Shown here in pieces: positions 8,474 through 30,782 of a DNA stretch of 64,000 nt. Source of the DNA: Deltaproteobacteria bacterium (GTDB lineage Bacteria > Desulfobacterota > JBBIRW01); NCBI GenBank assembly GCA_037441565.1, contig JBBIRW010000007.1:43297-107296 (forward strand). The letters run 5' to 3'. A model generated the notes under the pieces. That model was not told where the DNA came from. It ran no database searches and saw only the letters and a list, made by a program, of their open reading frames with translations. The position numbers and the translations under genes were made by a program. Positions within the stretch are counted from its first letter, which is position 1; every line of letters starts with the position of its first letter.

Positions 8474-9145
8474 ATGACAAACATGAAGGCATCATCATTA
8501 AGCAAAATCAACAGGATCATATCTATCATAAGAAAGGAAACAGAAGATTTCGAAATACCTGCCGTCTCAAGGGTCGCCCGCTCAAGGGATCCATTCAGAA
8601 TCCTCATCTCCTGTATCCTTTCTCTTCGAACCAAAGACAACATAACCCGTGACTGCTCAACACGTCTCTTTCAGCTTGCATCAGATCCATATAAAATGAG
8701 CTCGCTTTCCATTGAGGAGATTGAAAAGGCGATATATCCCTGTGGATTTTACCGACAGAAGGCACGCTTCATCAAATCGATCTGTAGAAGCCTTATTGAG
8801 AAATACAATGGAAAGGTTCCTGATAACCTCAAAGATCTTATGGAACTCAAAGGTGTTGGAAGAAAAACCGCCAATCTTGTAATCACCCTTGGTTATAATA
8901 AATTTGGCATATGCGTCGATACACATGTCCATCGTATAGTTAACAGGTGGGGCTATGTTAAAACAAATAATCCAGAAGAGACAGAATTTGAGCTTAGAAA
9001 GAAGCTCCCTAAAAGATACTGGAAAGAATTCAACAGTCTGCTTGTAAGCTACGGTCAGCATATCTGTAAACCCGTAATTCCACTATGCAGTATCTGCAAG
9101 ATATCACGATTCTGCCTGAAGGAGGGTGTTAAAAAATCCAGGTAG
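8474..9145 (+). CDS. nth: endonuclease III (HhH-GPD DNA glycosylase with [4Fe-4S])
   Basis: 223 aa; HhH motif LKGVGRKTANLV, DTHVHR, and the C-terminal Cx6Cx2Cx5C cluster (CKPVIPLCSICKISRFC). Confidence 0.85.
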   Translation: MTNMKASSLSKINRIISIIRKETEDFEIPAVSRVARSRDPFRILISCILSLRTKDNITRDCSTRLFQLASDPYKMSSLSIEEIEKAIYPCGFYRQKARFIKSICRSLIEKYNGKVPDNLKDLMELKGVGRKTANLVITLGYNKFGICVDTHVHRIVNRWGYVKTNNPEETEFELRKKLPKRYWKEFNSLLVSYGQHICKPVIPLCSICKISRFCLKEGVKKSR

Positions 9146-10096
9146 CAATGGCTGGAGCGGATCTTTTTCTGCAATCAAAAATTTTTGCGGCAGAGCATTA
9201 CATGGCTCCCCATCAAAATCTGGATTTTTGCAGATACAGATATGTGCCTCAATCCCTGAATGCCTTGAAATGTCTTTTATAAACCCGTATATACTTTTCC
9301 TTTTTGTAAAAGGAACAAGCTTTGTTTTTTTAGAAGTGCAAACCTCCCTCCAGGGCTCATCCACAAAATATGAAAGTATCCTGGTTAGTTCTCTCTTTCC
9401 CAGTTTGCTCCTCATTTCATAAATGATATTTGGCCTTAGATGAAGGCAGCTAATCGAAATCTTCTTTACACCATGTTCGTTTAAGACAGACACAAGTCTC
9501 TTTATTTCGAAAAAACTGTCGGTTACAGATGGAATAATCGGATCAATCCTCACCTCAACATCGATACCTGCTTCCTTTAGCATCTTTATGTTCTTCAATC
9601 TTTCATATGGCGTTGATGTATTTGGCTCAAATACATCATGATAATAATCGGAAAGGCTCACAATTCCTATACGGGCATGAATAAGATGCGGCTTTAATCT
9701 GAAGAGCCCGATAAAATCTTCAGGTATATTGCCCTTTGTTAGAAAGGAAAATGGTATATTCCTTTCAATAAGGATACGCATCGCCTTATAGGTAATTTCA
9801 AGAATTTCAGCTGCTGGCTGAAAGGAATCCGATGCAGTGTTAAAGATAACATAAATCGAGCGCGATCTTCTTATCAGTGAATCCAGATCTTTTTCAAGCA
9901 TTGTTTGTATATTCTTGTAAAGATAGACTGAGTATGGAGGAGGTGAGTTGCTATATGATTTTGCGTAACAATAAATACAATCATGGATACATCCAGATGT
10001 GATGTTTATCGCATAAAGACCCTTCATGCAGCCAAATGTAAATTTTTTGAGAGCGGATGTTTTCTTATCACATTTAATAATCTTCCACACTTTCAT
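9104..10096 (-). CDS. radical SAM protein, SplB-like (DNA-repair photolyase/spore-photoproduct-lyase family)
   Basis: 330 aa; CxxxCxxC motif (CIHDCIYCYA) near the N-terminus. Confidence 0.7.
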   Translation of the reverse strand: MKVWKIIKCDKKTSALKKFTFGCMKGLYAINITSGCIHDCIYCYAKSYSNSPPPYSVYLYKNIQTMLEKDLDSLIRRSRSIYVIFNTASDSFQPAAEILEITYKAMRILIERNIPFSFLTKGNIPEDFIGLFRLKPHLIHARIGIVSLSDYYHDVFEPNTSTPYERLKNIKMLKEAGIDVEVRIDPIIPSVTDSFFEIKRLVSVLNEHGVKKISISCLHLRPNIIYEMRSKLGKRELTRILSYFVDEPWREVCTSKKTKLVPFTKRKSIYGFIKDISRHSGIEAHICICKNPDFDGEPCNALPQKFLIAEKDPLQPLLPGFFNTLLQAES

Positions 10097-10098
10097 AT

Positions 10099-12090
10099 CT
10101 AACTCATAACAATCCTTGCATCAAGCACTTTATATCCCTTTTCAAAGGATGCCACAGGGTTCAGATCTATCTCATCAATGGATTGATCCTCCATCATGAT
10201 CTTCGAAATCTCAACAATAAGATTAGCTAATGCCCCTTTATCCCTCATCCCCTTTCCTCTAAAATCATGTAGAACCTTTGATCCCTTAATCTCATCGATC
10301 ATTTCGAGTGCATCCCTTTCACTCAGAGGCGCAATCCTGAATGAAACATCGCGTATCACCTCTACCATTATGCCACCCAGACCAAACATCGCAACAGGCC
10401 CAAACTGCTGATCCCTGAAGGCACCTACTATTACCTCGACATCAGATTTCACCATCTCCGATATGAGTAAACCATCCGTTTCCAAGCCAAGTGAGATCAG
10501 TTTTGAAAAGCCACTTCTTAGAGCAATATCGTCCCTTATATCGAGAATAACTCCTCCAACATCACTCTTATGACTGACCGATTTTGAATTTATCTTCAAT
10601 ACAACAGGATAACCAACATTTGATGCAAAGGACAATGCATCTTCCAGAGTGCTTACCTTAAAGCTATTTGCAGTAATAATACCCCTTGATGAGAGAAATT
10701 GAAGTGCCTCATAAGGTGAAAGAAGTTTTTTCCCCTTCGCTGTGGGCGTAACCTTTGGAATCGTGATTGTCTTTTTCCTTGTTGGTAAATGATGTGAGGC
10801 TGCCTTTATCCCTCTCTCAGGTGTTGGAAACACAGCAACCTTGTTCATGTGCATAATCTCCTTCTCCCTTCTTTCCACATCAGCTCCTCCGAGGAATATC
10901 ACAAGCTCACAACGATCCCTGTTTACAACAGATGAAGCATTCTCTATGGGATCGCCAAAAATAATGGTAACAATATCGTAATATGGAGCTGCCTCCTGGA
11001 TCACTCTTTTGTATGTTTGAGCATCAGCATCACCTGTAAGATCCAGTGGATTTGATATGATAAAGTGTGGAGGAAGCATCTCCCTCAATTTCTTCTCCAG
11101 TTCCTCTGGAAGAGGAGCTACATCAAATCCACACTCTTCAGCAGTGTCAGTCGCAATAATGCCAGAGCCCCCGGAGCTCGTTACAATAAGCATCCTTCTC
11201 CCCTCTGGCTTCTTAACATAAGCAAGTGCCTTGGAGATATCGTAAAGCTCTTCAAGATCCAACGCCCTATGTATACTAAACTGCTTGAATAATGCATCGT
11301 AAACCTCATCCCTTCCAGCAAGCGATTTTGTGTGCGATTCTGCAGCTATAATTCCTCTTTCTGTCCTTCCAGATTTTAATATTACAATGGGTTTTCTACA
11401 GTTCTTCATCACACGGAGAAATTTCTCTGCATCTTTAATACCTTCAATATACAGTGCTATCACTTTTGTGTTTGTATCCTGGGAAAAATATTCTATAAGA
11501 TCCGATTCATCAACATCTGCCCTGTTTCCCATACTTACAAATGCAGAAAAGCCCAGTTTTTCCTGAGATGCCCAGTCGATAAGTGCTGCACCAACAGTTC
11601 CACTCTGTGAAATGATTGCAATATCACCTCTCAGTGTTATCAATGGCCAGGATGCGCAAAGGTGATGGTACGGGTAATTAACACCCTGACAGTTTGGACC
11701 GATCAGCCTCATACCGAAATCCCGCGCATTCCTCAACACATCCTGCTGCAGAACCTCTCCTTCCCTTCCTGCCTCACTGAAACCACCTGTTATGATGATT
11801 GATGCCTTTACCCCCCTTTTTCCACAGCGCATAATCGCATCGGGGACAGCCTTCGCCGGAATTATAATAACAGCAAGATCAACACCCTCCGGCAGTTCAT
11901 CAACAGACCGCAGGCTTCTTTTCCCCAGTATCTCCTCTCCTTTCGGGTTTACCGGAAAAACCTCCCCCTGAAAACCTGCATCGAGTATGTTTTTAAAAAT
12001 TTTGTATCCGAATTTTTCCGGATTACTGGATGCACCAACTACTGCGATACGATCAGGTCTGAAAATGCAATCAAGCTCGTGTCTGCTCAT
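10099..12090 (-). CDS. acd: acetyl-CoA synthetase (ADP-forming), fused alpha/beta
   Basis: 663 aa; N-terminal CoA-binding domain (IAVVGASSNPEKFGYKIF), succinyl-CoA-synthetase-like flavodoxin domain, C-terminal ATP-grasp. Confidence 0.85.
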   Translation of the reverse strand: MSRHELDCIFRPDRIAVVGASSNPEKFGYKIFKNILDAGFQGEVFPVNPKGEEILGKRSLRSVDELPEGVDLAVIIIPAKAVPDAIMRCGKRGVKASIIITGGFSEAGREGEVLQQDVLRNARDFGMRLIGPNCQGVNYPYHHLCASWPLITLRGDIAIISQSGTVGAALIDWASQEKLGFSAFVSMGNRADVDESDLIEYFSQDTNTKVIALYIEGIKDAEKFLRVMKNCRKPIVILKSGRTERGIIAAESHTKSLAGRDEVYDALFKQFSIHRALDLEELYDISKALAYVKKPEGRRMLIVTSSGGSGIIATDTAEECGFDVAPLPEELEKKLREMLPPHFIISNPLDLTGDADAQTYKRVIQEAAPYYDIVTIIFGDPIENASSVVNRDRCELVIFLGGADVERREKEIMHMNKVAVFPTPERGIKAASHHLPTRKKTITIPKVTPTAKGKKLLSPYEALQFLSSRGIITANSFKVSTLEDALSFASNVGYPVVLKINSKSVSHKSDVGGVILDIRDDIALRSGFSKLISLGLETDGLLISEMVKSDVEVIVGAFRDQQFGPVAMFGLGGIMVEVIRDVSFRIAPLSERDALEMIDEIKGSKVLHDFRGKGMRDKGALANLIVEISKIMMEDQSIDEIDLNPVASFEKGYKVLDARIVMS

Positions 12091-12099
12091 ATGGACCTC

Positions 12100-13347
12100 C
12101 TAAATTAATAATTTCATGGAGGCATTCAAGATTTTCCCATAGTTGAGAGTGGATCTATGAAGGACCTCCTTCCAGATACCGAGACCTATACCCCTCTTTG
12201 ATAGTGTATATAAAATACCGGCATCCGAGGACGCATTCAAGAATAAGCCACCGATAATCCTGTCATCCCTGAAAACCAACTTCCTGTAAATGAGCCCTTC
12301 ACTGTTTTCATAAACCCTGAAATCGTCTTCATCTTCAATATATCCAAAGGATGCTATCTCAAGATTAAAAACTCTAAGTGTGCTCCAGGGAATGGCTCCT
12401 TCATATAAAAAATCATTCCCAGCCATATTTTCACCTGCAACCTTCCCCTGTTCCACTGCGATACTCCATAGCCCGTGAACTTCCTTTCTGCCCGTTATCA
12501 TATCAGTTGACTCAGCAACATCCCCTGCTGCAAATATGTTATTAATGCTGCTCCTCATCCTCTCATCAACAACAATTCCCTTTCCTGTTTGCACTCTCTC
12601 TCCTGTGAATTCGGGAAAATTCGGTTTTGCGCCAACAGCAACAATAACTGCATCAACAACAATTTCATCACCACCTGAAAGAATTACCATGTTTTTCCTT
12701 CCTCTTCTCTTTATTTCCATAACCCTTTCTTTTTTTCTTAAGTGAATGCCAATGCCCTTCAGGAAATCCTCGATTATATTGGAAAGCCTTCTGTCAGCAA
12801 TTCTTGAGAGCAGCTGTTCTGTTGCTTCAATAATATATACCTCCTTCCCTTGATTGATGAATGCCTGCATTGCCTGGATACCAATAAGTCCGCCTCCGAT
12901 AATCGCAACACTCTCTATCCTTCCAATCCTCCTTTTTATCCTCTTTACATCATCAAGACTCCAGAACGTATATAAATCTTTTCCGCTGATACCTGGTATA
13001 TCAGGAATAATGGGAGAAGCTCCTGTTGCAATGAGTAACTGGTCAAATGAAATTTCCTTGCTGCTGTCAATGAAAATTTTTGATCGCAAAGGATCGATAG
13101 AGAGAACTTTTCCATTTATGTATTTTACTTTCTGATCTTTGAAAAAGGATCTATCCCTTATATAAAGCACATCTTCAGTTATAGAATCATCAAGGAAGTA
13201 GTGGAGAAAGACCCTTGTGTATGGTGGGTATTTTTCCTTTGTAATAAGTATTACTTCCGAATGTTTGTCATGGAGTCTGAAGCTCTCAAGGGCACTTAAA
13301 CCTGCTGCGCTCTGACCGATAATAACAACCCTTTTTGCGCCCTTCAT
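12100..13347 (-). CDS. FAD/NAD(P)-binding pyridine-nucleotide-disulfide-family oxidoreductase (AorC-like)
   Basis: 415 aa; two Rossmann dinucleotide motifs (VIIGQSAAG, VAIIGGGLIG); 4-nt overlap with the upstream AOR gene. Confidence 0.7.
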   Translation of the reverse strand: MKGAKRVVIIGQSAAGLSALESFRLHDKHSEVILITKEKYPPYTRVFLHYFLDDSITEDVLYIRDRSFFKDQKVKYINGKVLSIDPLRSKIFIDSSKEISFDQLLIATGASPIIPDIPGISGKDLYTFWSLDDVKRIKRRIGRIESVAIIGGGLIGIQAMQAFINQGKEVYIIEATEQLLSRIADRRLSNIIEDFLKGIGIHLRKKERVMEIKRRGRKNMVILSGGDEIVVDAVIVAVGAKPNFPEFTGERVQTGKGIVVDERMRSSINNIFAAGDVAESTDMITGRKEVHGLWSIAVEQGKVAGENMAGNDFLYEGAIPWSTLRVFNLEIASFGYIEDEDDFRVYENSEGLIYRKLVFRDDRIIGGLFLNASSDAGILYTLSKRGIGLGIWKEVLHRSTLNYGKILNASMKLLI

Positions 13348-15149
13348 CCACTCAGACCAAGCCTCCTTAATGTTTCTTCCCTGGGAATGCCATTCTCATC
13401 CCACCCTCTTATTTCATAGTAACTATTGAGCATAGGATCAAGCTCAACCACCTGCCCCTTAGCTGCACCTGAAGGGAGTGGTTCCATCAAGAATCTTGGT
13501 GGAAGGGTGTCGTCCCTCCTGCTGAATCCACATCGGATGTTAAATAACCTTTCAAGATTCCAGATCCTTTCCCCGATAATTGAGATCTCCTCAGATGTAT
13601 AATTAAATCCTGTTGCTGTATTGAGAAGATTCAGTATATCCTTCTGCCCTATTGCAAATGTGCTGAAAATGCAAAGACCTGTTGAATCCACAACAGATGT
13701 ATAATCCTGAAATCCCTTTACCCAGTTATGCTTCCCCTCAATTGCAAAGGGATCGAGCTTCTCCGGAAGGCCAAGTATTTCAGGTGAAATCGTATAGCTT
13801 CTTAAATGGCATGCTCCCCTGTTTGCAGTTGCATATCCGAGACCCATCCCTTTTGCCCCCCTTGGATCATATGCAGCAAGTTCCTGTCGTTTTACTGTTA
13901 TGGATAACTCAGGATATCCAAAGCGCTCCGCCATCCTGTATGAGCCCTCAGCAAGGATATCGCCAAAACCCTCCCTCTTTCCTATCATCTTTATGAGATT
14001 TATCAGAAGATCTGCATCACCAAATCTCAGTGGAAGACCTGCTGTTTTTTCATCTATATTTCCCTTCTCAAACAGTTCCATTGCGCATGATATTGTTGCA
14101 CCTGCAGATATAGGATCAATCCCAAGTTCATTGCACAAATAGTTAGCCTTTGCAATTGCTTCAAGGTCAGATACACCAACACATGACCCGAGACCAAATA
14201 TGTTTTCATACTCGGGTCCTTCACCCTTCATCTTATGACCATCAGTTTTTACTTCAGTTATCCTGCCACACCCTATGCTGCATGCAAAGCATGCCTTGTT
14301 TCTGATGAGAATAGTCTCTGCCATGGTTTCGCCACTTATCTTTGATGCTTCTTCAAAAACACCTCTTTGAAAGTTATTTGTTGGAAAGAGACCGCACTCA
14401 TTAATTATATTAACAAGTATTGCAGTTCCATATGCAGGAAGCCCTTTTGATGTAACAGGGGATGCATATATCTTTTCATTTGCTGCCTTCACAGCCTGCA
14501 GGAACCCATCAGGATCAAAAACCTTTATCCCCCGTGATCCCCTCACTGCAATCGCCTTCAAGTTCTTTGACCCCATTACAGCACCAACACCAGATCTACC
14601 TGCAGCCCTGTGTTTATCATTTATTATGGACGAGAACCTCACGAGTTTCTCACCTGCAGGACCGATACTTGCTATCTTTGCATCAGGATCCGTCTCATCT
14701 CTTATGATATCCTCTGTTTGATGTGTGCTCTTCATAATCAACTTTTCCGCATTTCTTATCTCAACCTTTCCATTCTTTATCCATAAATAAACAGGACTCT
14801 GTGATTTCCCTTCCACGATCAAAGCATCATAGCCTGCAAACTTTAATTCCGGACCAAAGTATCCACCAGAATTTGAGCATGCGATTGTTCCTGTCAACGG
14901 TGATTTTGTAACAACCATATATCTTCCACCAGTGGGAGCAAGGGTAGCTGTAAGGGGTCCAGTAACTATAATAAGTTTGTTTCTTTCATCAAATGGATCA
15001 ATTGCGGGATCTATTTCATCAAAAAGGAGCTTGCTTCCAAAACCCCTTCCCCCGATAAACTTCCTCGCAACATCATAATTTATCTCCTCCTCTCTTATAT
15101 CTCCGCTGGAAAGATCGACCCTTAAAATCCTTCCTGCATAACCCCTCAT
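13344..15149 (-). CDS. aor: tungsten-containing aldehyde:ferredoxin oxidoreductase family catalytic subunit (AorB-like)
   Basis: 601 aa; typical AOR N-terminus (MRGYAGRILRVDLSSG...GGRGFGSKLL) and conserved pterin/FeS segments. Confidence 0.9.
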   Translation of the reverse strand: MRGYAGRILRVDLSSGDIREEEINYDVARKFIGGRGFGSKLLFDEIDPAIDPFDERNKLIIVTGPLTATLAPTGGRYMVVTKSPLTGTIACSNSGGYFGPELKFAGYDALIVEGKSQSPVYLWIKNGKVEIRNAEKLIMKSTHQTEDIIRDETDPDAKIASIGPAGEKLVRFSSIINDKHRAAGRSGVGAVMGSKNLKAIAVRGSRGIKVFDPDGFLQAVKAANEKIYASPVTSKGLPAYGTAILVNIINECGLFPTNNFQRGVFEEASKISGETMAETILIRNKACFACSIGCGRITEVKTDGHKMKGEGPEYENIFGLGSCVGVSDLEAIAKANYLCNELGIDPISAGATISCAMELFEKGNIDEKTAGLPLRFGDADLLINLIKMIGKREGFGDILAEGSYRMAERFGYPELSITVKRQELAAYDPRGAKGMGLGYATANRGACHLRSYTISPEILGLPEKLDPFAIEGKHNWVKGFQDYTSVVDSTGLCIFSTFAIGQKDILNLLNTATGFNYTSEEISIIGERIWNLERLFNIRCGFSRRDDTLPPRFLMEPLPSGAAKGQVVELDPMLNSYYEIRGWDENGIPREETLRRLGLSG

Positions 15150-15628
15150 TTTTGCACCTCCCTGTATGCATCCATAAGTTTCATGCTGTAAATCTTCCTC
15201 TTCCGCTGAAGTGTTAGATCTTCCTCCCTGTATTCAATAGCCTTCGTAGGACATATCCTTGCGCAGGCAGGATTACCCCTGCAGAGATCGCATTTGAATA
15301 CCTTGCCTTTCTCGGGGGAATAAAACATAACACCAAAAGGACACGCCATGGTACACATCCTGCAACCCGTGCATCTTGTTTCATTTAATTCAACAATACC
15401 CAGTTCACGATTTCTTGTTAGAGCAACAGATGGGCATACTTTCAAACACCATGCCTCATCACACTGGTAGCATACCACAGGTATGTAGAATGCCTCCTCG
15501 AGGAGCACAACCTCCCTGATACATGATTTTTCAGGGTTGAATTCACGAAATTTTTCAAAGGAGCAGGCAAGTTCACAAAGCCTGCAAGCGGTGCATTTTG
15601 AAGGATCGATCTGAAGAAAGGCAGGCAT
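15146..15628 (-). CDS. ferredoxin with four [4Fe-4S] motifs (AorA-like electron-transfer subunit)
   Basis: 160 aa with four Cys clusters (CTACRLCELAC, CYQCDEAWCLKVCP, CTGCRMCTMACP, CDLCRGNPACARICP); 4-nt overlap with aor. Confidence 0.8.
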   Translation of the reverse strand: MPAFLQIDPSKCTACRLCELACSFEKFREFNPEKSCIREVVLLEEAFYIPVVCYQCDEAWCLKVCPSVALTRNRELGIVELNETRCTGCRMCTMACPFGVMFYSPEKGKVFKCDLCRGNPACARICPTKAIEYREEDLTLQRKRKIYSMKLMDAYREVQK

Positions 15629-15708
15629 GGGGTCCTCCTTTTAAAACCATTTTCTATTTTCAAGAATTATACATTTTAATCCCGCCCCTTACCAGAATTT
15701 TCTTTTAA

Positions 15709-16362
15709 TTAAAAATCCTTTGATCTATCAATAATTATAACCTGGTAACCTTTTGATGCTAACTTTGTAGCCGTTGACCTTGCCTTTCCATAATCGCTGA
15801 AGAATCCAACCCTTACCCTGTAGAAGGTCCTCCCACCTATGACCTTCTCCTCCATATAAGCACCTTTGAACTCGACCTCAAGCTCATTCTTAAGTCTCAC
15901 TGCATACTCGTATGATATGAATGATCCCACCTGAAGTGTGTATCTCTCCTTTTTAATACTCTCGGACTCAAGGGATGAAGGAACACTCACAGGTTGAACG
16001 ATCACAGGAACAACACCCTTACCAATCATTTCAAGTTGTTTCGCAGCTGCATAGGAAAGGTCAATTATTCTCCCTTCTACAAAAGGTCCAAAATCATTTA
16101 TCCTAACAACAACGCTCTTTCCATTCTCAAGATTTGTTACCATTGCATAGCTACCCAGAGGAATTGTTCTTGATGCTGCTGTCAATTCATACATATCGAA
16201 TACCTCACCGGAAGCTGTTCTCTTTCCATGGAATCCCGGTCCGTACCATGATGCATACCCTCTTTCTTCATAAGGAACAACAGGTTTGTATCTGATTAAA
16301 GAACAGGAACTGAAAAAAACAGCAAGGAGAATCAAAAAGGTGGTATTGATTTTCATCCTCAA
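15709..16362 (-). CDS. rlpA: septal ring lytic transglycosylase RlpA family protein (DPBB + SPOR domains)
   Basis: 217 aa; signal/lipobox, DPBB motif [17 protein letters not shown]-terminal SPOR-like domain. Confidence 0.8.
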
Positions 16363-17246: not shown

Positions 17247-18476
17247 TTGAAAAAAAGGCAAATTCTTTTATATGCTGTTATTTTTTTGTTCACATTCTCC
17301 TGTCCCGTTCCATGGGTTGTCGTAAGATTCCTTAATTATCATCCGGGAGCCTTTGCTGAGGTCCTTTTAAGCGGGCTTGCAATTGTAGGTGCATCTTTTC
17401 TCATCTCTTGGGCATCTGAACTCGCGCAGTTTGATCTGTCAAGATCCTTTGCAATGGCATTAATTGCATTGATTGCTGTTTTCCCTGAATATGCAGTTGA
17501 TATATACCTTGCCTGGAGTGCAGGAAAGGATTCCCATTATATCCCCCTTGTTTCAGCAAATATGACAGGCGCAAACAGACTGCTCATAGGAATTGGATGG
17601 TCCGTTACCACATTCCTGAGCTGGTGGGCACTCCGATCAAGGGGAAAGATCAACAGGTATACATTCCATATACTCCTTGAAAAGGATCTCTTCACAGAGA
17701 TAGGTTTTTTGAGTATCGCAACATTTTACTGTTTTATCCTTCCCATCAAAGGAACTATTTCGCTTCTGGATACAGTTCTCCTCTCGTCCATATTTTTCCT
17801 CTACATACTAACTGCCCTGCGTATGCCTCATAAAGAGCCTGAAATAGAGGGTATGCTCCACCTGTTTTCCATGCTTAAACCACTATGGAGGAGGATTGTG
17901 ATCATTACGATATTTATATACTCCGCCTCCATAATATTTATATCAACGGAGCCCTTTGCAGAAGGTCTGATAGATATAGGGAAGATGGCTGGAGTTGATG
18001 AATTCTTACTCATCCAGTGGATTGCCCCACTTGCATCAGAATCGCCCGAACTCATAATAATCTCCTACTTTGCCCTGAAGGGTTTCTCAACATCATCGAT
18101 GACAACTGTGATATCTTCAAAGATCAACCAGTGGACATTACTTATTGCTTCCCTTCCGCTTGCCTTCAGCATATCCTCAGGAGGCCCATCCTCGATCCCA
18201 CTTCTGGAAAGGGCAAGGGAGGAGGTCTTGCTTACAGCTGCGCAATCCCTTTTTGCATTGAGCATACTGATAAACCTCAGAATCTCCATCCTTGAGGTTA
18301 CAGCCCTCTTCATGCTCTTTGTAACTCAGCTTTTTGTTACATCGGTTCATAATCGCTACATATACTCTTCTATCTACCTGGCCCTTTCTACCATCATAAT
18401 ACTCAAACAGAAGAACCACTTCTTTGAACTTTTCAGGTATCTCAAAAGGAATCTCTTTTACCGTGAAATGCATTAA
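17247..18476 (+). CDS. CaCA-family cation/Ca2+ exchanger-like membrane protein
   Basis: 409 aa polytopic membrane protein with two alpha-repeat-like segments (IAVFPEYAVD and LASESPELII). Confidence 0.55.
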   Translation: MKKRQILLYAVIFLFTFSCPVPWVVVRFLNYHPGAFAEVLLSGLAIVGASFLISWASELAQFDLSRSFAMALIALIAVFPEYAVDIYLAWSAGKDSHYIPLVSANMTGANRLLIGIGWSVTTFLSWWALRSRGKINRYTFHILLEKDLFTEIGFLSIATFYCFILPIKGTISLLDTVLLSSIFFLYILTALRMPHKEPEIEGMLHLFSMLKPLWRRIVIITIFIYSASIIFISTEPFAEGLIDIGKMAGVDEFLLIQWIAPLASESPELIIISYFALKGFSTSSMTTVISSKINQWTLLIASLPLAFSISSGGPSSIPLLERAREEVLLTAAQSLFALSILINLRISILEVTALFMLFVTQLFVTSVHNRYIYSSIYLALSTIIILKQKNHFFELFRYLKRNLFYREMH

Positions 18477-19294
18477 AAACAGAAAATCGCTTTTTTGTTA
18501 ATCTCATGATGGGCACACCTTTCTCTGAAAATTGCCTTTATCCTCTTTGCATAAAGCCTTCTTATATTAATGTCATAAAGCACACCCCTCATATTATCCA
18601 AGGCGCGAGGGTATCTACTAAGAAGGACCCCCTTCATCGATGACCAGATCTGCCAGTGAGGGTTCATTATATCAACAAAGAAGAAATCAACACCTGTGCC
18701 TTTCACAAGTTCTACCATTGCATCAATTTCATCCCTGGTGTCAGAAATACCTGGAAGGAGAGGACCGAAAAATATGTAGGTCTTAAGACCAGCTGACCTT
18801 AATTCTTTTAAAACAGCTACTCTATCAAATACAGATGAGGCATGTGGTTCAAAATCCTTCCGCACAGAATCATTAAGCGTTGTTATCGTTACACCTATCT
18901 CACAGTTCCTGTATCCTGATAGAATATCCATATCCCTTATAATAAGGGAACTTTTTGTGAGTATCCTTACAGGAAAGCCATGTTCTTTTAAGATCTCCAG
19001 ACATCTTCTCGTCAAACTGAACTTCTCCTCAAGCGGTTGCCACCCATCACACACACTGCTTATAAAAACTGTTCCTCTTCTCGATTTTACAATCTCTCTT
19101 TTAAGCACATCGGGTGCATTTATTTTTACATCGACAAAGCTTCCCCATGGATCTGTATATCCTTTAAACTTCATCATGAAACGTGCGTAGCAGTAGATAC
19201 ATCCATGCTGGCATCCGGTATAACAATTTATGGTATAATCGGCAAGCGCAGATCTCGTAAGGATGGACCTGCAGATGACTTCCTTAATCTTCAT
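18473..19294 (-). CDS. radical SAM protein, SplB-like (paralog of 9104-10096)
   Basis: 273 aa; CxxxCxxC motif (CQHGCIYCYA). Confidence 0.7.
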   Translation of the reverse strand: MKIKEVICRSILTRSALADYTINCYTGCQHGCIYCYARFMMKFKGYTDPWGSFVDVKINAPDVLKREIVKSRRGTVFISSVCDGWQPLEEKFSLTRRCLEILKEHGFPVRILTKSSLIIRDMDILSGYRNCEIGVTITTLNDSVRKDFEPHASSVFDRVAVLKELRSAGLKTYIFFGPLLPGISDTRDEIDAMVELVKGTGVDFFFVDIMNPHWQIWSSMKGVLLSRYPRALDNMRGVLYDINIRRLYAKRIKAIFRERCAHHEINKKAIFCF

Positions 19295-23532: not shown

Positions 23533-24111
23533 CTACTTTAACCTTTCTTCAACAACATCCCAGTTTATATTTCTGAAAAATGCCTCAATGTAATCGGCCC
23601 TCTTTAATCCATAATCAATCATGAATGCATGCTCAAAGACATCCATTATGAGGATGGGATTACATCCTGCAGGATGAGAAACATCATGTTCGTTTATCCA
23701 GAAATTTATCAGCCTTCCATTTGCAGGATCCTGATAAAGGATCACCCAGCCAATGCCTCTCATTGTCCCGCATGATTTGAAATCTTTCTCCCACTGCTCA
23801 TAGCTTCCAAAATCCTCGGCAATCTTTCTTGCTATCCTGCTTTCCTTCTTTATTCCACCCTTGCCACCGAGATTTTCAAAGTAATATTCATGAAGCCTCA
23901 TCCCGTTAAACTCCCATCCCAGTCTCCTTTTTAGCTCCGCATATTCGGGAGTCCCTGCCTTTCCATCTCTCAACATACTGTTTAACGTATCGATTAATTT
24001 GTTTGTGTTTGTTACATAACCCTGATAAAGGGTGAAGTGATTTTTGAGCAGTGTTTCGCTGAATCCTTCAATACCTATAAGCTTGCTGTAATCTTTTGGA
24101 TTGTAGCTCAT
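23533..24111 (-). CDS. sod: superoxide dismutase, Fe/Mn family
   Basis: 192 aa; Fe/Mn-SOD fold motifs (HFTLYQGYV, GWVILYQD, DVFEHAFMIDY). Confidence 0.85.
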   Translation of the reverse strand: MSYNPKDYSKLIGIEGFSETLLKNHFTLYQGYVTNTNKLIDTLNSMLRDGKAGTPEYAELKRRLGWEFNGMRLHEYYFENLGGKGGIKKESRIARKIAEDFGSYEQWEKDFKSCGTMRGIGWVILYQDPANGRLINFWINEHDVSHPAGCNPILIMDVFEHAFMIDYGLKRADYIEAFFRNINWDVVEERLK

Positions 24112-24238
24112 AAGATCCTCCTTTTGATTCTTTGTTCTTTACTGAGCGATAGAAAATAAAAACTTAAGATAATTAATACCAATGGATCTCTCTAAATTCA
24201 ATACCTTCTCTTGAATTAATGAGTTTTAATGTAGGGGA

Positions 24239-24274
24239 AGGAGGGGTCCATATCTCTCTTAATGGATCCCTCCT
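24239..24274. repeat. inverted repeat, 13-bp arms with 10-nt loop
   Basis: AGGAGGGGTCCAT / ATGGATCCCTCCT (one G-U-compatible mismatch) lying 5-40 nt beyond the bacterioferritin-like stop and about 130 nt upstream of sod; no U-tract follows. Confidence 0.4.
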
Positions 24275-24279
24275 GCTGA

Positions 24280-24717
24280 TCATTGTTCTTCTGCGAAGGT
24301 CTTGATTTGAAGGATGGCGCTGAATTTATCATCATGCCCTTCTTCATCCATTATAATCTCTTCAAGAATCCTCCTCGTCACAGGGTCACCCGCTTCCTCT
24401 GCGAGCTTTAGATGTTCTTTGTACAGTTTTATTGCCATCCTTTCACCATCGATGTCATCTTTTATCATCTTTTTGAGATCACCACCAACTTTTATCTCCC
24501 CCGGTTTTGTAACGGGTGTTCCACCAAGATAGTTTATCCTCTCCGCGAGTTTCTCAGCATGTTTCATCTCGTCGATGGCAATCTTTCTAAACATCTCGGA
24601 AATTTCGGGGCTTTCCAAACCTTCTGCCATAACATGATGCCACATATATTGTGTTATAGCAGCAAGTTCAAGTGCGAGATCATCATTTAGTGCCTTTATA
24701 AGTTTTTCTTTTGACAT
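24280..24717 (-). CDS. bacterioferritin / ferritin-like diiron protein
   Basis: 145 aa from internal ATG at 24717 (MSKEKL...), which has an AAGGAGG site upstream; two ExxH diiron motifs (DEMKHAE, DEEGHDD). Confidence 0.75.
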   Translation of the reverse strand: MSKEKLIKALNDDLALELAAITQYMWHHVMAEGLESPEISEMFRKIAIDEMKHAEKLAERINYLGGTPVTKPGEIKVGGDLKKMIKDDIDGERMAIKLYKEHLKLAEEAGDPVTRRILEEIIMDEEGHDDKFSAILQIKTFAEEQ

Positions 24718-24835
24718 GGATACCTCCTTTCTTCCTGTATACAAATATATACTTCTGATAGAATACGCCACACATTATAGCAGGAGATATCCATATCATT
24801 CAATATCAATTTTTTATCTGCAACGAATCTCTCCC

Positions 24836-25399
24836 TCAGTGATGCTCACCAAGGTAGACTTCACTTAGATGATGTAAAAGCTTATGATATTCCTCATGTT
24901 TTCCTGGGCCAATCCTCTCCCTCTCGATCCTTTCAAAGTTCTCCAAAAGCTCCTTTTCCTTTTCTACTGAAATGCGCATCTCGCCCATAGGGTAAAGGAT
25001 GTTGTCTTCCTTGTAGATGTGATCCGTAAGAAGTGAAATATAGCCCCTTGCGTTTTTTACAAAATCTACGGAAGCCTTTTCATCACCAGTCCTGTATCTC
25101 GAAAAAGCATCATTCATACCCCTCAGATAACTCCGACCCATTTCATGTTCACTAAGCATAACACCGATTGGACCCCCTTCCTTTGGAATACCCAACTCCT
25201 CAAAAGCAGGGAATAGAAGGTCTTCCTCCTTCCCATGGTGACACCTATCGGCAAATGTTCTGATGAAATCGATAATCTTTTCGATATCATCGGGCTTTAC
25301 TCTCTCGTTTTTCTGAAGCATCTCACAAACCTTCTCCAGGACTTTTAGCATAAGCTTTATTGCCTTATGTTCCTCTTTAAGTTGTTCAGTTGGTTTCAT
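24836..25399 (-). CDS. hemerythrin-like (HHE cation-binding) domain protein
   Basis: 187 aa; His/Glu-rich hemerythrin-type pattern (HHGKEEDLLFP, LSEHEMG, HIYKEDNILYP). Confidence 0.75.
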   Translation of the reverse strand: MKPTEQLKEEHKAIKLMLKVLEKVCEMLQKNERVKPDDIEKIIDFIRTFADRCHHGKEEDLLFPAFEELGIPKEGGPIGVMLSEHEMGRSYLRGMNDAFSRYRTGDEKASVDFVKNARGYISLLTDHIYKEDNILYPMGEMRISVEKEKELLENFERIERERIGPGKHEEYHKLLHHLSEVYLGEHH

Positions 25400-25479
25400 G
25401 GTGATAACCTCCCATTCTGAAATTTCCTATATATTAAATCCATCACCGGCAAAAATCTATGAGCGAAATCATATTCTGA

Positions 25480-25653
25480 TTATATTTCGCATACAAATTC
25501 GCTCTTAGGTGCACCGCATATGGGACAGACCCAGTCTTCGGGTAGTTGATCAAATGGTGTCCCTTCCCCAATATTTGATTCCGGATCTCCCTTCTCAGGA
25601 TCATAAATATATCCACAGACTGTGCACCTGTATCTTAAAAATGTATCGATCAT
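25480..25653 (-). CDS. rub: rubredoxin
   Basis: 57-aa ORF below the track cut-off: [53 protein letters not shown]. Two CxxCG knuckles and conserved YIYDPE and [11 protein letters not shown] segments. Its ATG overlaps the upstream stop (ATGA). Confidence 0.85.
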
Positions 25654-26909
25654 CCTTTTACCTTCATGTTTTTTGGAAGTATTAATCTTATCGCCCTTTC
25701 ATAAAAAATATAATCCCATGCCCAGTTTATCAAAACTATAAGCCTGTTTCTGAATCCGATAAGGTTAAAAAGATGGACACTAAGCCATATTACCCATGCA
25801 GGGAAACCAGTAAATCCAAAACCTCTCAGGTGTGCAACAGCTTTATTACGACCTATTGTAACCATCGTTCCCTTATCTATATATCTGAAAGGAAGGGGAT
25901 CATCACCACGCAACTGACGGGCTATGTTTCTTCCTGCCCAATGTCCCTGCTGAATTGCAACAGGTGCAATCATAGGGAGAACTTTTCCATCTTCCTCCAG
26001 ATAAGCAAGGTCACCTATAACATAAATCCTTTGATCTTCCATCACCTGGAGTGTGGGAAGAACAGGAACCCTTCCACCTTTAATAGTTCTCAAACCTGAT
26101 TCCTCTGCTAATCTACTTCCACGAACACCTGCTGTCCATACAACGGTTCCTGTATCAATCCTCTTTCCTTCCTTTAACAAGATATGATCTTCCGCTATCT
26201 CAGTAACAATACTGTTCAATCTCACATCAACACCCATTGATTTAAGCCTATCAGCTGTATAAAGGGATAGTTTCTCAGGAATGCCAGGGAGAATAAAACC
26301 ACTAGCCTCAATAAGGATCAGTTTTACTTCACTTATATCAATGGTTGGAAAATCCTTTACAATAGGACCCCTTATAAGCTCTGCCAGCGCTCCTGCAAAC
26401 TCCACACCTGTTGGGCCACCTCCAACTATACAGAATGTAAGCATCCTTCCTCTCTTTCCACTATCCCTTTCATGAACTGCATGTTCAAAGCATGAGAGTA
26501 TATGATTCCTGAGGTAAATGGCATCATCCAATGTCTTTAAGGGAAAACTATATTCGGCTGCACCCTTCACATTAAAAAAATTTGATATACTTCCTGAGGC
26601 GATTATCAGGTAATCATAGCCAATAGTGAAGTCATCACCAACGACCATCCTTCTCCTTATGTCAATACCCTCTACCTCCCCCATTATAAACCTTACTGAT
26701 TGAAATTTTCTCAGGATACTCCTTACAGGATAGACAATATCCTCTGGCTCAAGCTCTGAGGCAGCAATTTGATATAGAAGCGGAAAAAAGGTATGATAAT
26801 TATTCCTGTCTATAAGAACTATCTCTCCATCTATCTTGCTCAGCGATTTCAGTGCCCACAGTCCACCAAAACCAGCACCTATTATAACAATCCTTGGGGC
26901 TTCAGGCAT
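25650..26909 (-). CDS. type II NADH dehydrogenase-family flavoprotein (NDH-2-like)
   Basis: 419 aa; two dinucleotide-binding motifs ([21 protein letters not shown]) and an amphipathic C-terminal anchor. Confidence 0.8.
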
Positions 26910-27334
26910 CAGGATTCTCCTTTATATCCTTTCAAATATCTATAATCCAGACTCAAAGGATCAGGTTCAGCATAGAGATACATTAACAGACCACCCATTA
27001 TCGCAAGATTTTTTAAAAACATGATTATCTGAAGTCTCTGAGAGAAGTCTGTATGGAAAATTATTGTTGTTGGTATTAAAAAGATCAGCAGCATTAAACT
27101 TCCCCATTTTGCCTTTATTCCAAGCAGAAGGGAAAGACCTCCGATTCCCTCGAGTAAAATTGCACCTATTAAGAAAAAACCAGGGTAAGGCATTCCATAC
27201 GCCCTCATATAGTTTATCGTCCCTGATGGGTCGATTATCTTTGTTATACATGAAATGATAAAGATAATCGAAATAAATACCCTTGAAAGTAACAAAACTA
27301 CACCCTTCATGAAAACCTCCTTTTCCAGCAGCAA
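26909..27334 (-). CDS. DoxX-family membrane protein
   Basis: 141 aa with four predicted TM helices; 1-nt stop/start overlap with the NDH-2 gene. Confidence 0.65.
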   Translation of the reverse strand: MLLEKEVFMKGVVLLLSRVFISIIFIISCITKIIDPSGTINYMRAYGMPYPGFFLIGAILLEGIGGLSLLLGIKAKWGSLMLLIFLIPTTIIFHTDFSQRLQIIMFLKNLAIMGGLLMYLYAEPDPLSLDYRYLKGYKGES

Positions 27335-27426: not shown

Positions 27427-28236
27427 TTGGAGATGCGAATAGTATTTTTGCGAAGAATCTTTGCCTTCTTAGGAAAATATCTGCCCATAATAACTATTCT
27501 GTTAATCTCTTCCACATATCCGTTAAAGGCACATACAGATGCGATGGAAGAGAGGAAAGAGGTAATTATAGAGGATAGAACAGGTAAATTTATCCCTCTT
27601 GATCTGGATTTTACCGATGAGAATGGGAAGGTTGTTTCGATCAAGGAACTCTTTAAGAAGCCGGTGATACTTTCTCCTGTTTACTTCAGCTGTCCCAATG
27701 TTTGCAATCTCCTTCTTGAAGAGATTGCCCGTCTTATTGATAAGATGGAAGCAGAACCAGGAAGGGACTACTCCATAATAACATTTAGTTTTGATGAAAA
27801 TGATAAGCCGGAAAAGGCACTTGAAAAAAAGAGGATTTTTCAAAAGATCATCAAGAAAAAAATTCCTGATGATTCATGGAAATTCCTCACAGGAGATAGA
27901 GAATCAATTAAAAGACTCACCGATGCAATCGGGTTTAATTTCAAAAGAAAGGGCGATGAATTTATACATCCTGTTTCACTGGTTGTTCTTTCAAGTGACG
28001 GTAAGATTATCCGTTATGTTCCTGGAAAGGCACTCCTTCCATTCGATCTGAAAATGGCTATTGCGGAGGCATCTGAAGGAAGAACGGGGGCAACTATAAA
28101 TAAAGTGCTTCTTCTCTGCTACAGTTATGATCCCCAAGGCAGGAGATACGTGCTTAATATAACAAGGATTGGAGGTGTAATTATACTACTTTCACTTGCT
28201 GGATTCTCAATATTTCTTCTGAGAAACAGGAGTTAA
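27427..28236 (+). CDS. SCO1/SenC-family copper chaperone (thioredoxin-like, CxxxC)
   Basis: 269 aa; signal peptide, thioredoxin-like domain with CPNVC, conserved C-terminal YDPQGRRYV segment followed by a TM helix. Confidence 0.8.
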   Translation: MEMRIVFLRRIFAFLGKYLPIITILLISSTYPLKAHTDAMEERKEVIIEDRTGKFIPLDLDFTDENGKVVSIKELFKKPVILSPVYFSCPNVCNLLLEEIARLIDKMEAEPGRDYSIITFSFDENDKPEKALEKKRIFQKIIKKKIPDDSWKFLTGDRESIKRLTDAIGFNFKRKGDEFIHPVSLVVLSSDGKIIRYVPGKALLPFDLKMAIAEASEGRTGATINKVLLLCYSYDPQGRRYVLNITRIGGVIILLSLAGFSIFLLRNRS

Positions 28237-28238
28237 TT

Positions 28239-29858
28239 ATGACGCAGGGCTCTATTCTCCTGAAAACTCACACGATTAGCTTTCTTGAAGAAAAAGGGAG
28301 ATATAAAGGTATACTTTCCTGGATCATGTCAACGAACCATAAGAGGATAGGTCTACTCTACCTTCTCTCCATGCTTTCTTTCTTCATTATCGGTGTTATC
28401 CTCGGACTTCTTATGAGACTTGAGCTTATTGCGCCGGGAAGAACCATAATGGGTCCGCAGACGTATAATTCCATATTCACCCTTCATGGAGTTATAATGA
28501 TATTTTTATTTGTTATCCCTGGAATACCTGCTGCGTTCGGGAATTTCTTCCTTCCCATACACATAGGTGCAAGGGATGTATCATTCCCGAGAATAAATCT
28601 TCTGTCCTGGTACTTCTTCATAGGCGGAGCAACACTTGTTGTGATATCGCTTTTTACAGGTGGAGGGCCTATTGATACAGGATGGACGTTCTATGCTCCA
28701 TATAGCATAAGAACAGGAACAAATGTGTCCCTCGCTGTCCTGGGCGCTTTTTTAATCGGATTTTCCTCAATACTAACAGGGCTTAATTTTGTGACGACCA
28801 TACACAGATTGAGGGCACCTGGAATGGGGTGGTTCCGCATGCCACTTTTCGTATGGTCCCTTTATGCAACAGGCTGGGTCCAGCTTCTTGCAACACCTGT
28901 CGTTGGAATAACACTAATTCTTATCATATGTGAGAGATTTTTTGGTGTCGGTTTTTTCGATCCAGCAAAAGGGGGTGATCCTCTGTTGTTTCAGCATCTC
29001 TTCTGGATCTACTCACACCCTGCTGTTTACATAATGATCCTTCCTGCGATGGGTGTTATCTCAGAAATAATCCCTGTTTTCTCAAGGAAGAATATATTTG
29101 GATATAAGGCAATAGCATTCTCAAGTCTTTCCATAGCTCTCGTTGGATATCTTGTATGGGGACACCATATGTTCACAAGCGGTATGAGTGATACTGCAAA
29201 GTGGGTATTTTCCCTATTAACATTTCTCGTGGCAATACCAAGTGGAGTTAAAACATTCAACTGGGTTGCAACAATGTATGGAGGATCAATTGAAATTGCC
29301 CCTCCATTGCTATATGCGCTCTCGTTTATATTTGCATTTTCAATAGGCGGTTTAACAGGTCTTATAAATGGAGCAATTGCCACTGATATTCACATACATG
29401 ATACATATTTTGTTGTTGGTCATTTCCATTATACCATGTTTGGTGGAACTGCCTTTGCTTTTTTTGGTGCACTTCACTACTGGTTTCCTAAGATGTTTGG
29501 AAAGATGTATAGCATAAGACTTGCAAATATTGCCTGGCTCATCCTTTTTACAGGTTTTAATATTTTATACTTTCCCATGTTTATCCTTGGATGGGAGGGG
29601 ATGCCGAGGAGATATTATGACTATCTTCCAAGATTCCATATGCTTCATCTCATATCAACCATCGGCTCCTGGATCCTTGCAACTGGTCTTATCCTTATGT
29701 TTTACAATTTTCTACGTTCCCTGAAATATGGTGAAAGGGCAGAACATAACCCCTGGGGTGGAAGCACACTGGAATGGCAGATACAGTCCCCTCCACCCCC
29801 AGAGAACTTCGAGCATATACCTGCTGTCAGCGCAGGACCTTATGATTTCAAAAGGTGA
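28239..29858 (+). CDS. ctaD: cytochrome c oxidase subunit I (heme-copper oxidase, A-type)
   Basis: 539 aa; 12 TM; SHPAVYIMILP (His-Tyr region) and WGHHMF (CuB histidines). Confidence 0.9.
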   Translation: MTQGSILLKTHTISFLEEKGRYKGILSWIMSTNHKRIGLLYLLSMLSFFIIGVILGLLMRLELIAPGRTIMGPQTYNSIFTLHGVIMIFLFVIPGIPAAFGNFFLPIHIGARDVSFPRINLLSWYFFIGGATLVVISLFTGGGPIDTGWTFYAPYSIRTGTNVSLAVLGAFLIGFSSILTGLNFVTTIHRLRAPGMGWFRMPLFVWSLYATGWVQLLATPVVGITLILIICERFFGVGFFDPAKGGDPLLFQHLFWIYSHPAVYIMILPAMGVISEIIPVFSRKNIFGYKAIAFSSLSIALVGYLVWGHHMFTSGMSDTAKWVFSLLTFLVAIPSGVKTFNWVATMYGGSIEIAPPLLYALSFIFAFSIGGLTGLINGAIATDIHIHDTYFVVGHFHYTMFGGTAFAFFGALHYWFPKMFGKMYSIRLANIAWLILFTGFNILYFPMFILGWEGMPRRYYDYLPRFHMLHLISTIGSWILATGLILMFYNFLRSLKYGERAEHNPWGGSTLEWQIQSPPPPENFEHIPAVSAGPYDFKR

Positions 29859-30484: not shown

Positions 30485-30774
30485 GGTTTGCTATGCAAAA
30501 CAAGAGAAATGAAGCAGGTTTTTTGACATATCTTTTTGTGTGGATATCTCTCATTGTTCTCACTGCATTTACAGTTACAGTCGCGGCTCTTAATCTCGGA
30601 AAAATTGCTGTTCTCACAGCGCTATCAATTGCATCATTCAAATCGTTGATGGTTCTTAACTTCTTTATGCATCTGAAATATGAGGATCGTCTATTCCATT
30701 TCATGCTCCTTCTCTCTGTTATTACCCTTTCGATAATTATAGGATTCACATTTTTTGACATCTCTTTCAGATAG
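30481..30774 (+). CDS. cytochrome c oxidase subunit IV (bacterial small subunit)
   Basis: 97 aa, three TM helices; position between subunits III and II; 4-nt overlap. Confidence 0.6.
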   Translation: MRFAMQNKRNEAGFLTYLFVWISLIVLTAFTVTVAALNLGKIAVLTALSIASFKSLMVLNFFMHLKYEDRLFHFMLLLSVITLSIIIGFTFFDISFR

Positions 30775-30782
30775 GGTTAATT

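Follow-up and report, generated by a model that had tools for sequence, protein, structure and literature searches.

Gene content and layout of the operon

We analyzed a 64,000-nt stretch of DNA from an uncultured Thermodesulfobacteriota bacterium (hereafter the window, whose coordinates are used unless another locus is named). Its minus strand has an operon of homologues of the three subunits of the tungsten-containing aldehyde oxidoreductase (AOR) known as AorABC, followed by genes for an ADP-forming acyl-CoA synthetase (acd) and a radical SAM protein. We consider it fairly probable that this region encodes a three-subunit, NAD+-reducing tungsten AOR of the N-type, that its extension by acd and the radical SAM gene is restricted to one lineage and probably part of the same transcript, and that the enzymes act sequentially from aldehyde to acid to acyl-CoA. 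The operon and the signals upstream of it are as follows.

15734-15762, minus strand: promoter-like site, the best sigma-70 match (TTAGCA, 17 nt, TATAAT; 10/12), located in the 3' end of rlpA, ~105 nt before aorA starts
15666-15673, upstream of aorA: extended -10 TGTATAAT, from reading the sequence
15634-15638, minus strand: GGAGG ribosome-binding site, 5 nt upstream of the aorA ATG, from reading the sequence
15146-15628, minus strand: aorA, 160 aa, electron-transfer subunit with four [4Fe-4S] clusters (polyferredoxin "wire"); Fer4_11 and other 4Fe-4S families, including dicluster ones (Pfam)
13344-15149, minus strand: aorB, 601 aa, tungstopterin catalytic subunit of the AOR family; AFOR_N (E=7.7e-85) and AFOR_C (E=2.8e-158) (Pfam)
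12100-13347, minus strand: aorC, 415 aa, FAD-containing, NAD(H)-binding subunit; Pyr_redox_2 (E=4.7e-55) and Rubredoxin_C (Pfam)
10099-12090, minus strand: acd, 663 aa, alpha-beta fused NDP(ADP)-forming acyl-CoA synthetase; CoA_binding, Succ_CoA_lig (flavodoxin-like), Ligase_CoA_2 and ATP-grasp_5 (Pfam)
9104-10096, minus strand: SplB/PA0069-like radical SAM gene, 330 aa; Radical_SAM and SPL (Pfam)

The domain E-values of all five genes lie far beyond chance. The record of the source contig, an 82.8-kb Logan contig (SRR11582170, contig 9373), carries identical gene calls. The aorA/aorB and aorB/aorC junctions each consist of an ATGA, that is, an overlap of 4 nt. Only 9 nt separate aorC from acd, and since a GGAGG ribosome-binding site spans the aorC stop codon, the expression of the two genes is expected to be coupled. 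The gap between acd and the radical SAM gene is of 2 nt. Upstream, the neighbor of aorABC is rlpA. At the other end, the 3' end of the radical SAM gene overlaps by 42 nt the convergent nth (8474-9145, endonuclease III). An initial annotation of the window, made from the sequence, had described three genes overlapping by 4 nt, followed on the same strand by a synthetase and an SplB-like gene. All of them are open reading frames (ORFs) at the positions it gave, and the span that it delimited runs from aorA to the synthetase gene.

We searched for promoters with a sigma-70-like consensus scan, which was compared with shuffled sequences. The number of promoter- and terminator-like sites in the region does not exceed that of the shuffles. 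The scan found no such site at any gene junction, and the promoter-like site lies only upstream of aorA. An Rfam scan across the window gave no match to a molybdenum or tungsten cofactor (Moco/Wco) riboswitch or to any other RNA. The gaps of 9 and 2 nt and the junctions devoid of promoter- or terminator-like sites make the co-transcription of aorABC with the synthetase gene, as proposed in the initial annotation, plausible, and the radical SAM gene is probably on the same transcript.

The catalytic subunit belongs to the AOR clade proper

The highest scores of AorB among solved structures are all in the AOR clade: 779 bits with 9mqx_D, 731 with 1aor_A, 648 with 8c0z_A, and 640 with 9g7j. They compare with 451 bits for WOR83, 332 for FOR, 259 for WOR5, and 215 for BamB, and the match to the GAPOR profile of NCBIfam is of 46 bits for a cut-off of 1300. 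Because the scores for the other clades are so much lower, AorB is assigned to the AORs in the strict sense, and not to FOR, GAPOR, WOR5, or BamB. Its identity is 57.5% with WorL of Acetomicrobium mobile, 55.9% with the AOR of Pyrococcus furiosus, and 51% with AorB of Aromatoleum aromaticum. Residues C287, C290, C294, and C493, together with E315 and H448, align with C288, C291, C295, C494, E313, and H448 of P. furiosus (1AOR), which we take to be the cluster cysteines and the active-site Glu and His. The four cysteines correspond to FS0, whose [4Fe-4S] motif has been described (PMC10413684). The positions of the bridging-iron ligands of P. furiosus, E332 and H383, are occupied by K334 and I383, and these ligands are likewise absent from Aromatoleum AorB and A. 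mobile WorL.

To place AorB, we built a neighbor-joining (NJ) tree with homologues from 80 genome loci and five PDB sequences (100 bootstraps; Moorella not included). It contains an Aromatoleum-type AorB clade of 45 sequences with 100% bootstrap support, most of which have adjacent aorA and aorC genes. A second tree, made by NJ only, included in addition metagenome proteins with 60-64% identity. There, the window AorB forms a separate clade, with 100% support, with the AorB of two relatives. These are L002, the closest genome and an uncultured Thermodesulfobacteriota metagenome-assembled genome (MAG), on a 482-kb contig of CAZDGM01, and L084 (protein P0242), from the sample SRR27730023. The three contigs are syntenic, and we refer to them as the lineage. 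A second large clade of AORs of ~600 aa contains the nearest AorB relatives outside the lineage (L093-L095, 61-64% identity), and the order aorA-aorB-aorC was found in all three of these loci when checked directly. Two more proteins of this second clade, P0275 and P0347, agree with the AorC homologues P0123 and P0153 in the length of their longest contigs, which suggests that they are encoded together. As judged from the sequences, the architecture is N-type, and the catalytic subunit is not an Aromatoleum-type AorB. An AOR that grouped weakly with that of the window in the first tree (L067, 6214-10222) has upstream a 588-aa GltD/HdrC-like NAD(P)-binding iron-sulfur flavoprotein and downstream a small AorA-like gene, pairing a related catalytic subunit with another kind of NAD(P) adaptor.

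The electron-transfer subunits resemble those of Aromatoleum

AorA has 16 cysteines in four cluster motifs and is 46.8% identical to Aromatoleum AorA, which is also its best match in the PDB (8c0z_C, E=1.1e-40), followed by WorS (9mqx_E, E=3.3e-36). In the structure 8C0Z, the C-terminal helix of AorC contacts AorA at P9, F42, W60, and A95 (PMC10413684). The window AorA has P9, L42, W60, and A95 at these positions, thus keeping three of the four. W60, within an "EAWC" motif, occurs in every aligned AorA that is linked to an AorC and is replaced in the aligned sequences that have only AorA (WorS-like). It appears to be the most specific sign of an AorA-AorC partnership in this protein. The C-terminal tail of ~24 residues aligns with those of AorA and WorS-like proteins through a pattern of basic residues followed by K(L/F), and its sequence is unlike that of the Aromatoleum subclade.

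The best PDB match of AorC is Aromatoleum AorC (8c0z_E, E=2.6e-57, residues 7-403), with much lower scores for coenzyme A disulfide reductases and NADH oxidases. The FAD motif, G11-x-S-x-x-G16, is typical of the family, with a Ser in 103 of the 122 aligned sequences. R45 corresponds to R41 of Aromatoleum, and the NAD motif is G151-G-G-L-I-G156. At the end of beta-2, AorC has an acidic residue, E174, as does Aromatoleum AorC, while most homologues have V/I followed by K/R (V/I-K/R-S) and may be of the NADP type. Together, the matches to 8c0z_C and 8c0z_E and the 648 bits of AorB with 8c0z_A support, subunit by subunit, the Aromatoleum-like AorABC organization proposed in the initial annotation.

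We considered whether AorC could be a coenzyme A disulfide reductase or an NADH oxidase, given NCBIfam matches of 193-197 bits. These families require a redox-active cysteine. Since AorC has no cysteine at all, such chemistry is excluded. A pair made of an AorA-like four-cluster ferredoxin and an AorC-like flavoprotein (36% identity to the window AorC) also occurs in an Omnitrophota MAG (L091, 4508-6290; L092, 3453-5235), where, in L091, it is placed between cooS and the acetyl-CoA synthase genes (CODH/ACS, for carbon monoxide dehydrogenase/acetyl-CoA synthase).

Comparison with known enzyme classes

The N-type is a described class of these enzymes and accounts for 26% of WOR clade 87 (PMC12318220). 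The closest characterized system is AorABC of A. aromaticum (8C0Z; PMC6365974, PMC10413684), with which the window operon shares the order of the three genes, the best solved matches of AorA and AorC, the 16 cysteines of AorA, the FS0 cysteines, the FAD and NAD motifs with their acidic residue, the AorC-contacting P9, W60, and A95, and an AorB lacking the iron-bridge ligands of the P. furiosus homodimer. It differs in the sequence of the AorA tail, present in both, and in what follows aorC: the Aromatoleum operon has aorD and aorE, whereas that of the window runs into the genes for the synthetase and the radical SAM protein.

The bifurcating, BF-type WorABCSL of A. mobile (9MQX; PMC12318220) provides the best solved match of AorB (WorL) and a homologue of AorA (WorS), in a WorSL architecture of the nanowire type. 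In contrast to that system, no BfuABC (NuoE/NuoF/NuoG-like) genes adjoin the window operon, which has an AorC-type flavoprotein in their place, and AorA has the N-type Trp of the "EAWC" motif that is absent from the aligned WorS-like sequences. The window does have NuoE/NuoF-like genes, at a distance of 38 kb and beside those of POR (see below). The P. furiosus AOR, an M-type homodimer, shares FS0, the active-site residues, and 55.9% identity with the catalytic subunit, but it has no AorA or AorC partner, uses ferredoxin, and has the bridging ligands E332 and H383 in place of K334 and I383. The stand-alone catalytic gene of the M-type also contrasts with aorB, which overlaps both aorA and aorC. 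Finally, the AOR of Moorella thermoacetica was described as having three subunits and the operon structure of Aromatoleum, with a position in the tree between the AOR subfamilies of bacteria and archaea (PMC6365974). Going by this published description, its general situation is the same as that of the window, i.e., a three-subunit AOR whose catalytic subunit falls outside the Aromatoleum subclade.

The synthetase and the radical SAM protein

The best PDB match of the synthetase is the ADP-forming 4-hydroxybutyrate-CoA ligase of Nitrosopumilus (8wzu_A, E=8e-112), with further matches to 9y43_A (3-hydroxypropionate-CoA ligase), 2csu_A, and 4xyl_A and 4xyl_B (the NDP(ADP)-forming acyl-CoA synthetase, ACD, of Candidatus Korarchaeum). 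It shares with ACD-type enzymes (8WZU, 9Y43, 4XYL) the domain set and two histidine motifs, and its alpha-beta fusion is in the order of 8WZU. H253 (AAESHTKSLAG, alpha part) and H507 (SHKSDVGGV, beta part) both align with 8wzu_A, and we take them to be the catalytic (phospho)histidines on the basis of work on the P. furiosus and Korarchaeum ACD. The best solved relatives, i.e., the 4-hydroxybutyrate- and 3-hydroxypropionate-CoA ligases, run in the acid-activating direction. The initial annotation had named the protein an ADP-forming acetyl-CoA synthetase. The domains and the histidines agree with an NDP(ADP)-forming acyl-CoA synthetase, but a specificity for acetate is not established, because all the NCBIfam equivalogs are far below their cut-offs: acetate-CoA ligase has 534 bits for 1200, 3-hydroxypropionate-CoA ligase 467 for 1300, and 4-hydroxybutyrate-CoA ligase 454 for 1300. 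We rejected two other assignments, a Pat-type protein acetyltransferase and a DddX-type dimethylsulfoniopropionate lyase (PDB 9it0, 7cm9), as the protein has no GNAT domain and the scores are much below those of the ACD ligases. Several JGI homologues carry the name "acetyltransferase".

The radical SAM protein has a CIHDCIYC (CxxxCxxC) motif at residue 36. It matches Pfam SPL with 30.7 bits for a cut-off of 27, and its NCBIfam matches are below cut-off (TIGR04070 photo_TT_lyase, 27.9 for 400; PA0069, 88.6 for 360; the Rv2578c family likewise). It is, from these scores, SplB-like in fold class only. A paralogous SplB/PA0069-like gene (18473-19294, minus strand; 27% identical to the one at 9104-10096, minus strand) lies on the other side of the aor operon, so that the two flank it within 10 kb, and both are kept in L084. 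This paralogue and the radical SAM gene beside a Thermodesulfobacterium AOR belong to the same generic family. We considered the radical SAM protein as a maturase of the tungsten cofactor or of AOR and rejected this candidate, given the weak SPL match, the sub-threshold PA0069 and Rv2578c matches, the paralogue in a generic family, and the lack of relationship with the radical SAM genes that accompany aorABC in L093 and L095. The convergence and overlap of the gene with nth would fit a role in DNA repair at least as well.

The extension of the operon is specific to one lineage

The order rlpA-aorABC-acd-radical SAM-nth is kept in both relatives of the window. The identities are of 97% for AorA, 96% for AorB, 90% for AorC, 95% for the synthetase, and 92% for the radical SAM protein in L002, and of 95%, 86.5%, 69%, 84%, and 69%, respectively, in L084. 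AorC is the subunit that diverges fastest within the lineage (12100-13347 in the window and 8744-9991 in L084), with intact frame and cofactor motifs.

Outside the lineage, we compared the neighborhoods of 79 other genome AOR loci, up to 8 kb around each. AorA- and AorC-like genes were scored beside aorB in 33 of them, nearly all from Burkholderiales or other Proteobacteria. No synthetase-like gene, at any coverage, was found within 8 kb of the 79 loci. The two orthologues of the synthetase that we examined (57-59% identity) have unrelated neighbors and no AOR, and adjacency to an AOR operon thus sets the window gene apart from the other ACD-type members examined. The expectation that the flanking genes would be co-conserved in related genomes was not borne out, as the synthetase and radical SAM genes accompany aorABC only in the syntenic L002 and L084 and are absent elsewhere. 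Metagenome scans added little: the one with AorC gave 114 pattern matches with no relative among them, and the one with the synthetase gave only short matches (26-53% identity), mostly to the N-terminal CoA-binding part, which are uninformative on synteny. A literature search found no described AOR-ACD operon.

Other AOR loci have different extensions. In L093 (10872-13630) and L095 (10109-12844), aorABC is followed by a conserved trio of genes, encoding a nitroreductase-family protein, a PF01676 phosphomutase-like protein, and a radical SAM protein that is unrelated to that of the window. In a separate AOR clade, which is 42-45% identical to the window AorB and lacks AorA and AorC, all four loci have a gene for an AMP-forming acyl-CoA ligase downstream of the AOR gene, at a distance of 79-250 nt:

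L065, 2042-3625: AMP-forming acyl-CoA ligase
L068, 7965-8846: AMP-forming acyl-CoA ligase
L070, 9918-11558: AMP-forming acyl-CoA ligase
L073, 10084-11550: AMP-forming acyl-CoA ligase

The same theme is found in L089, where AorA, AorC, and a protein of the aldehyde ferredoxin oxidoreductase family (AFOR) are followed by an AMP-forming acyl-CoA ligase. The pairing of AOR with AMP-forming ligases arose independently of the one in the window.

Genomic context in the window

The window has other genes of redox and energy metabolism:

28239-29858: COX1 of the first heme-copper oxidase operon
45557-47134: COX1 of the second heme-copper oxidase operon
50326-53303, plus strand: 2-oxoacid:ferredoxin oxidoreductase (POR), four subunits (gamma, delta, alpha, beta), ~35 kb from the aor operon
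58427-59455: Zn-dependent alcohol dehydrogenase (Zn-ADH), ~43 kb from the aor operon

The two O2 reductases reported in the initial annotation are thus present. The regions of their operons (27427-38811 and 44689-49683) also encode SCO1, COX2, COX3, and heme O synthase, and there is a cluster resembling alternative complex III (ACIII), with a 938-aa molybdopterin/FeS ActB-like protein, NrfD, and ActD. By gene content, this Thermodesulfobacteriota MAG is equipped for aerobic respiration. An oxidative-stress cluster (23533-27334), on the same strand as the aor operon, encodes Fe-SOD, a rubrerythrin/ferritin-like protein, hemerythrin, rubredoxin, an NDH2-like flavoprotein, and a DoxX/MauE membrane protein. 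Most of the aorABC loci that we recovered are from Burkholderiales, e.g., Sphaerotilus, Azohydromonas, and Caldimonas, which are aerobic genera. Together with the low oxygen sensitivity reported for the Aromatoleum AOR (PMC6365974), this means that a tungsten AOR in an organism that respires O2 is not unusual.

The POR genes are part of a longer plus-strand stretch (50326-56370) that continues with a NuoE-like 2Fe-2S protein, a 616-aa NuoF-like flavoprotein, and a 239-aa Fer2_4/Fer4 protein. POR seems to share an operon with a BfuABC/HydBC-like NAD(H) module, and it could be NAD-linked or bifurcating. POR and Zn-ADH had been taken to form, with the aor operon, a compact acid/aldehyde/acyl-CoA redox node. 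Both genes are there, but at such distances that the node is not compact. An RNA repair cluster (40735-44692) encodes a CobW/archease fusion (437 aa), the RtcB ligase, and the RtcA cyclase.

We searched for genes of tungsten and cofactor supply among the called genes at 3344-64000 and the two largest of the three ORFs of at least 130 aa below position 3344, one of which matched MscS and the other no family. The tungstate transporter and pterin-cofactor genes that the initial annotation proposed to look for were not found in this part of the window, and the ABC genes at 56914-58414 are of the ABC-2 type. No aorD, aorE, or other MoaD-like gene was found among these called genes and ORFs either.

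Proposed function and alternatives

The gene content, the homology of the three subunits, the conserved ligands and AorA-AorC contacts, and the tight operon are the observations from which a function can be proposed. AorB would oxidize an aldehyde to a carboxylic acid at a tungsten bis-pyranopterin site. The electrons would exit AorB by FS0, cross AorA along its four clusters, and arrive at the FAD of AorC, which would reduce NAD+. Judging by homology with the two multi-subunit relatives of known structure, the AorAB protomers are probably linked by AorA into a short electron-conducting filament with AorC as a cap. The metal, the activity, and the filament are thus those expected from the family. 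The gene order suggests that the synthetase would then convert the acid to acyl-CoA at the expense of one ATP, which would replace a CoA-acylating aldehyde dehydrogenase. This coupling of aldehyde to acid to acyl-CoA is plausible and is supported by the analogy with the AMP-forming ligases.

Several observations weigh against this proposal. Some concern the AOR itself. The initial annotation had asked for a phylogeny of the AOR, and while the protein does belong to the AOR clade proper, the window AorB (51% identical to Aromatoleum AorB) fell inside the Aromatoleum subclade in 0 of 100 NJ bootstraps, and its best solved match is WorL. Support is only 7-35% for the backbone joining the multi-subunit clades with the BF type and the Aromatoleum clade. 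The identity of AorC with its Aromatoleum counterpart is only 32%, and AorC is similarly close (35-38%) to homologues that adjoin CODH or other AFOR clades (L087, L089), each of them preceded by or near an AorA-like gene. Because of this, the ferredoxin-plus-FAD pair is best described, from the sequences at hand, as a portable module that connects various low-potential enzymes to NAD(P), and not as specific to AOR. There is no room at 9104-15628 for aorD and aorE, the MoaD-like maturation genes of the Aromatoleum operon, and no ThiS/MoaD family was found among the called genes at 3344-64000. The single-sequence AlphaFold model of AorA (helix 135-158) has a pLDDT of 35 and is untrustworthy. Others concern the extension. 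The whole region from rlpA to a kinase gene is syntenic in L002 and L084, with the flanking housekeeping genes kept too, and the pairing with acd hence does not testify independently to selection. The link is lineage-specific, and no synthetase gene lies beside aorABC in the three closest loci (L093-L095).

These last points feed the main alternative, in which the genes are co-transcribed without forming a pathway. AorABC would be a broad aldehyde detoxifier, and the synthetase would independently run in the usual fermentative direction, turning acyl-CoA, ADP, and Pi into acid and ATP. Its substrate could be, e.g., the acetyl-CoA produced by POR, whose operon is in the window. The adjacency of the genes would be accidental, a matter of gene order in this lineage. 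We regard this as possible, although rather unlikely. It agrees with the absence of synthetase genes from the 79 other AOR loci and from the closest aorABC loci, with the two orthologues that have no AOR neighbor, and with the syntenic background, to which the pairing adds no information. It accounts less well for the 9-nt gap and the ribosome-binding site over the aorC stop codon, which point to coupled expression, for the independent recurrence of an AOR next to an acyl-CoA ligase in another AOR clade, and for the persistence of the pairing while AorC fell to 69% identity.

Two further alternatives are much less probable. The system could run in the reductive direction, with the synthetase freeing the acid with a gain of ATP, AorABC reducing it to the aldehyde, and Zn-ADH producing the alcohol, like the AOR/Adh route known from acetogens and Pyrococcus. 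Enzymes of the AOR type can reduce non-activated acids (PMC9295118, PMC6365974), and a Zn-ADH is encoded in the window. However, acid reduction needs donors of very low potential, and the partner here is an NAD-type flavoprotein, not ferredoxin. With the Aromatoleum AOR, this reaction was very slow and was observed only at low pH and with Ti(III) citrate (PMC6365974). The ADH gene is also 43 kb away, and the two heme-copper oxidases and the ACIII-like complex provide respiratory sinks that leave no evident need for alcohol formation. We consider this direction very improbable. We give slightly less credit still to the idea that AorAB uses ferredoxin or another acceptor, AorC being either a decaying protein or an independent ferredoxin:NAD(P) reductase. 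AorC evolves fastest (69% identity in L084, versus 95% for AorA and 86.5% for AorB), and proteins like it serve other enzymes, e.g., CODH. Yet its frame is intact in the window, L002, and L084, and its clusters at 90% identity include 3-4 members found in other assemblies. The 4-nt overlap with aorB and all cofactor motifs are conserved, as are the AorA residues that contact AorC, including the N-type-specific W60, and the nearest relatives keep the order aorA-aorB-aorC.

Beyond the sequential NAD-linked AOR that we favor, a more specific proposal is that this Thermodesulfobacteriota lineage assembled aorABC-acd as a dedicated two-step module, in which a non-acylating, NAD-linked tungsten AOR feeds its acid directly to a reversible ADP-forming synthetase and replaces a CoA-acylating aldehyde dehydrogenase in an O2-respiring organism, with AorB representing a separate N-type lineage. 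We put it forward only tentatively. If true, it would parallel the pairing of AOR with AMP-forming ligases that evolved independently in another clade, and it would imply that the AorC adaptor either was already present in the ancestor of the bacterial multi-subunit AORs or was recruited on more than one occasion.

Implications

N-type enzymes, the nanowire architecture, and their occurrence in oxygen-tolerant bacteria have already been described, and our results do not overturn the current understanding of these systems. The only unusual trait of the operon is that it runs on into an ADP-forming acyl-CoA synthetase gene, in this one lineage. The analysis adds a lineage of Thermodesulfobacteriota to the NAD-linked N-type AORs, and since this lineage is N-type, the three-subunit architecture is not confined to the Aromatoleum-type AorB subclade. 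The link with acd and the independent pairing with AMP-forming ligases hint at a recurrent gene logic, from aldehyde to acid to acyl-CoA, that could guide the assignment of substrates to AORs.

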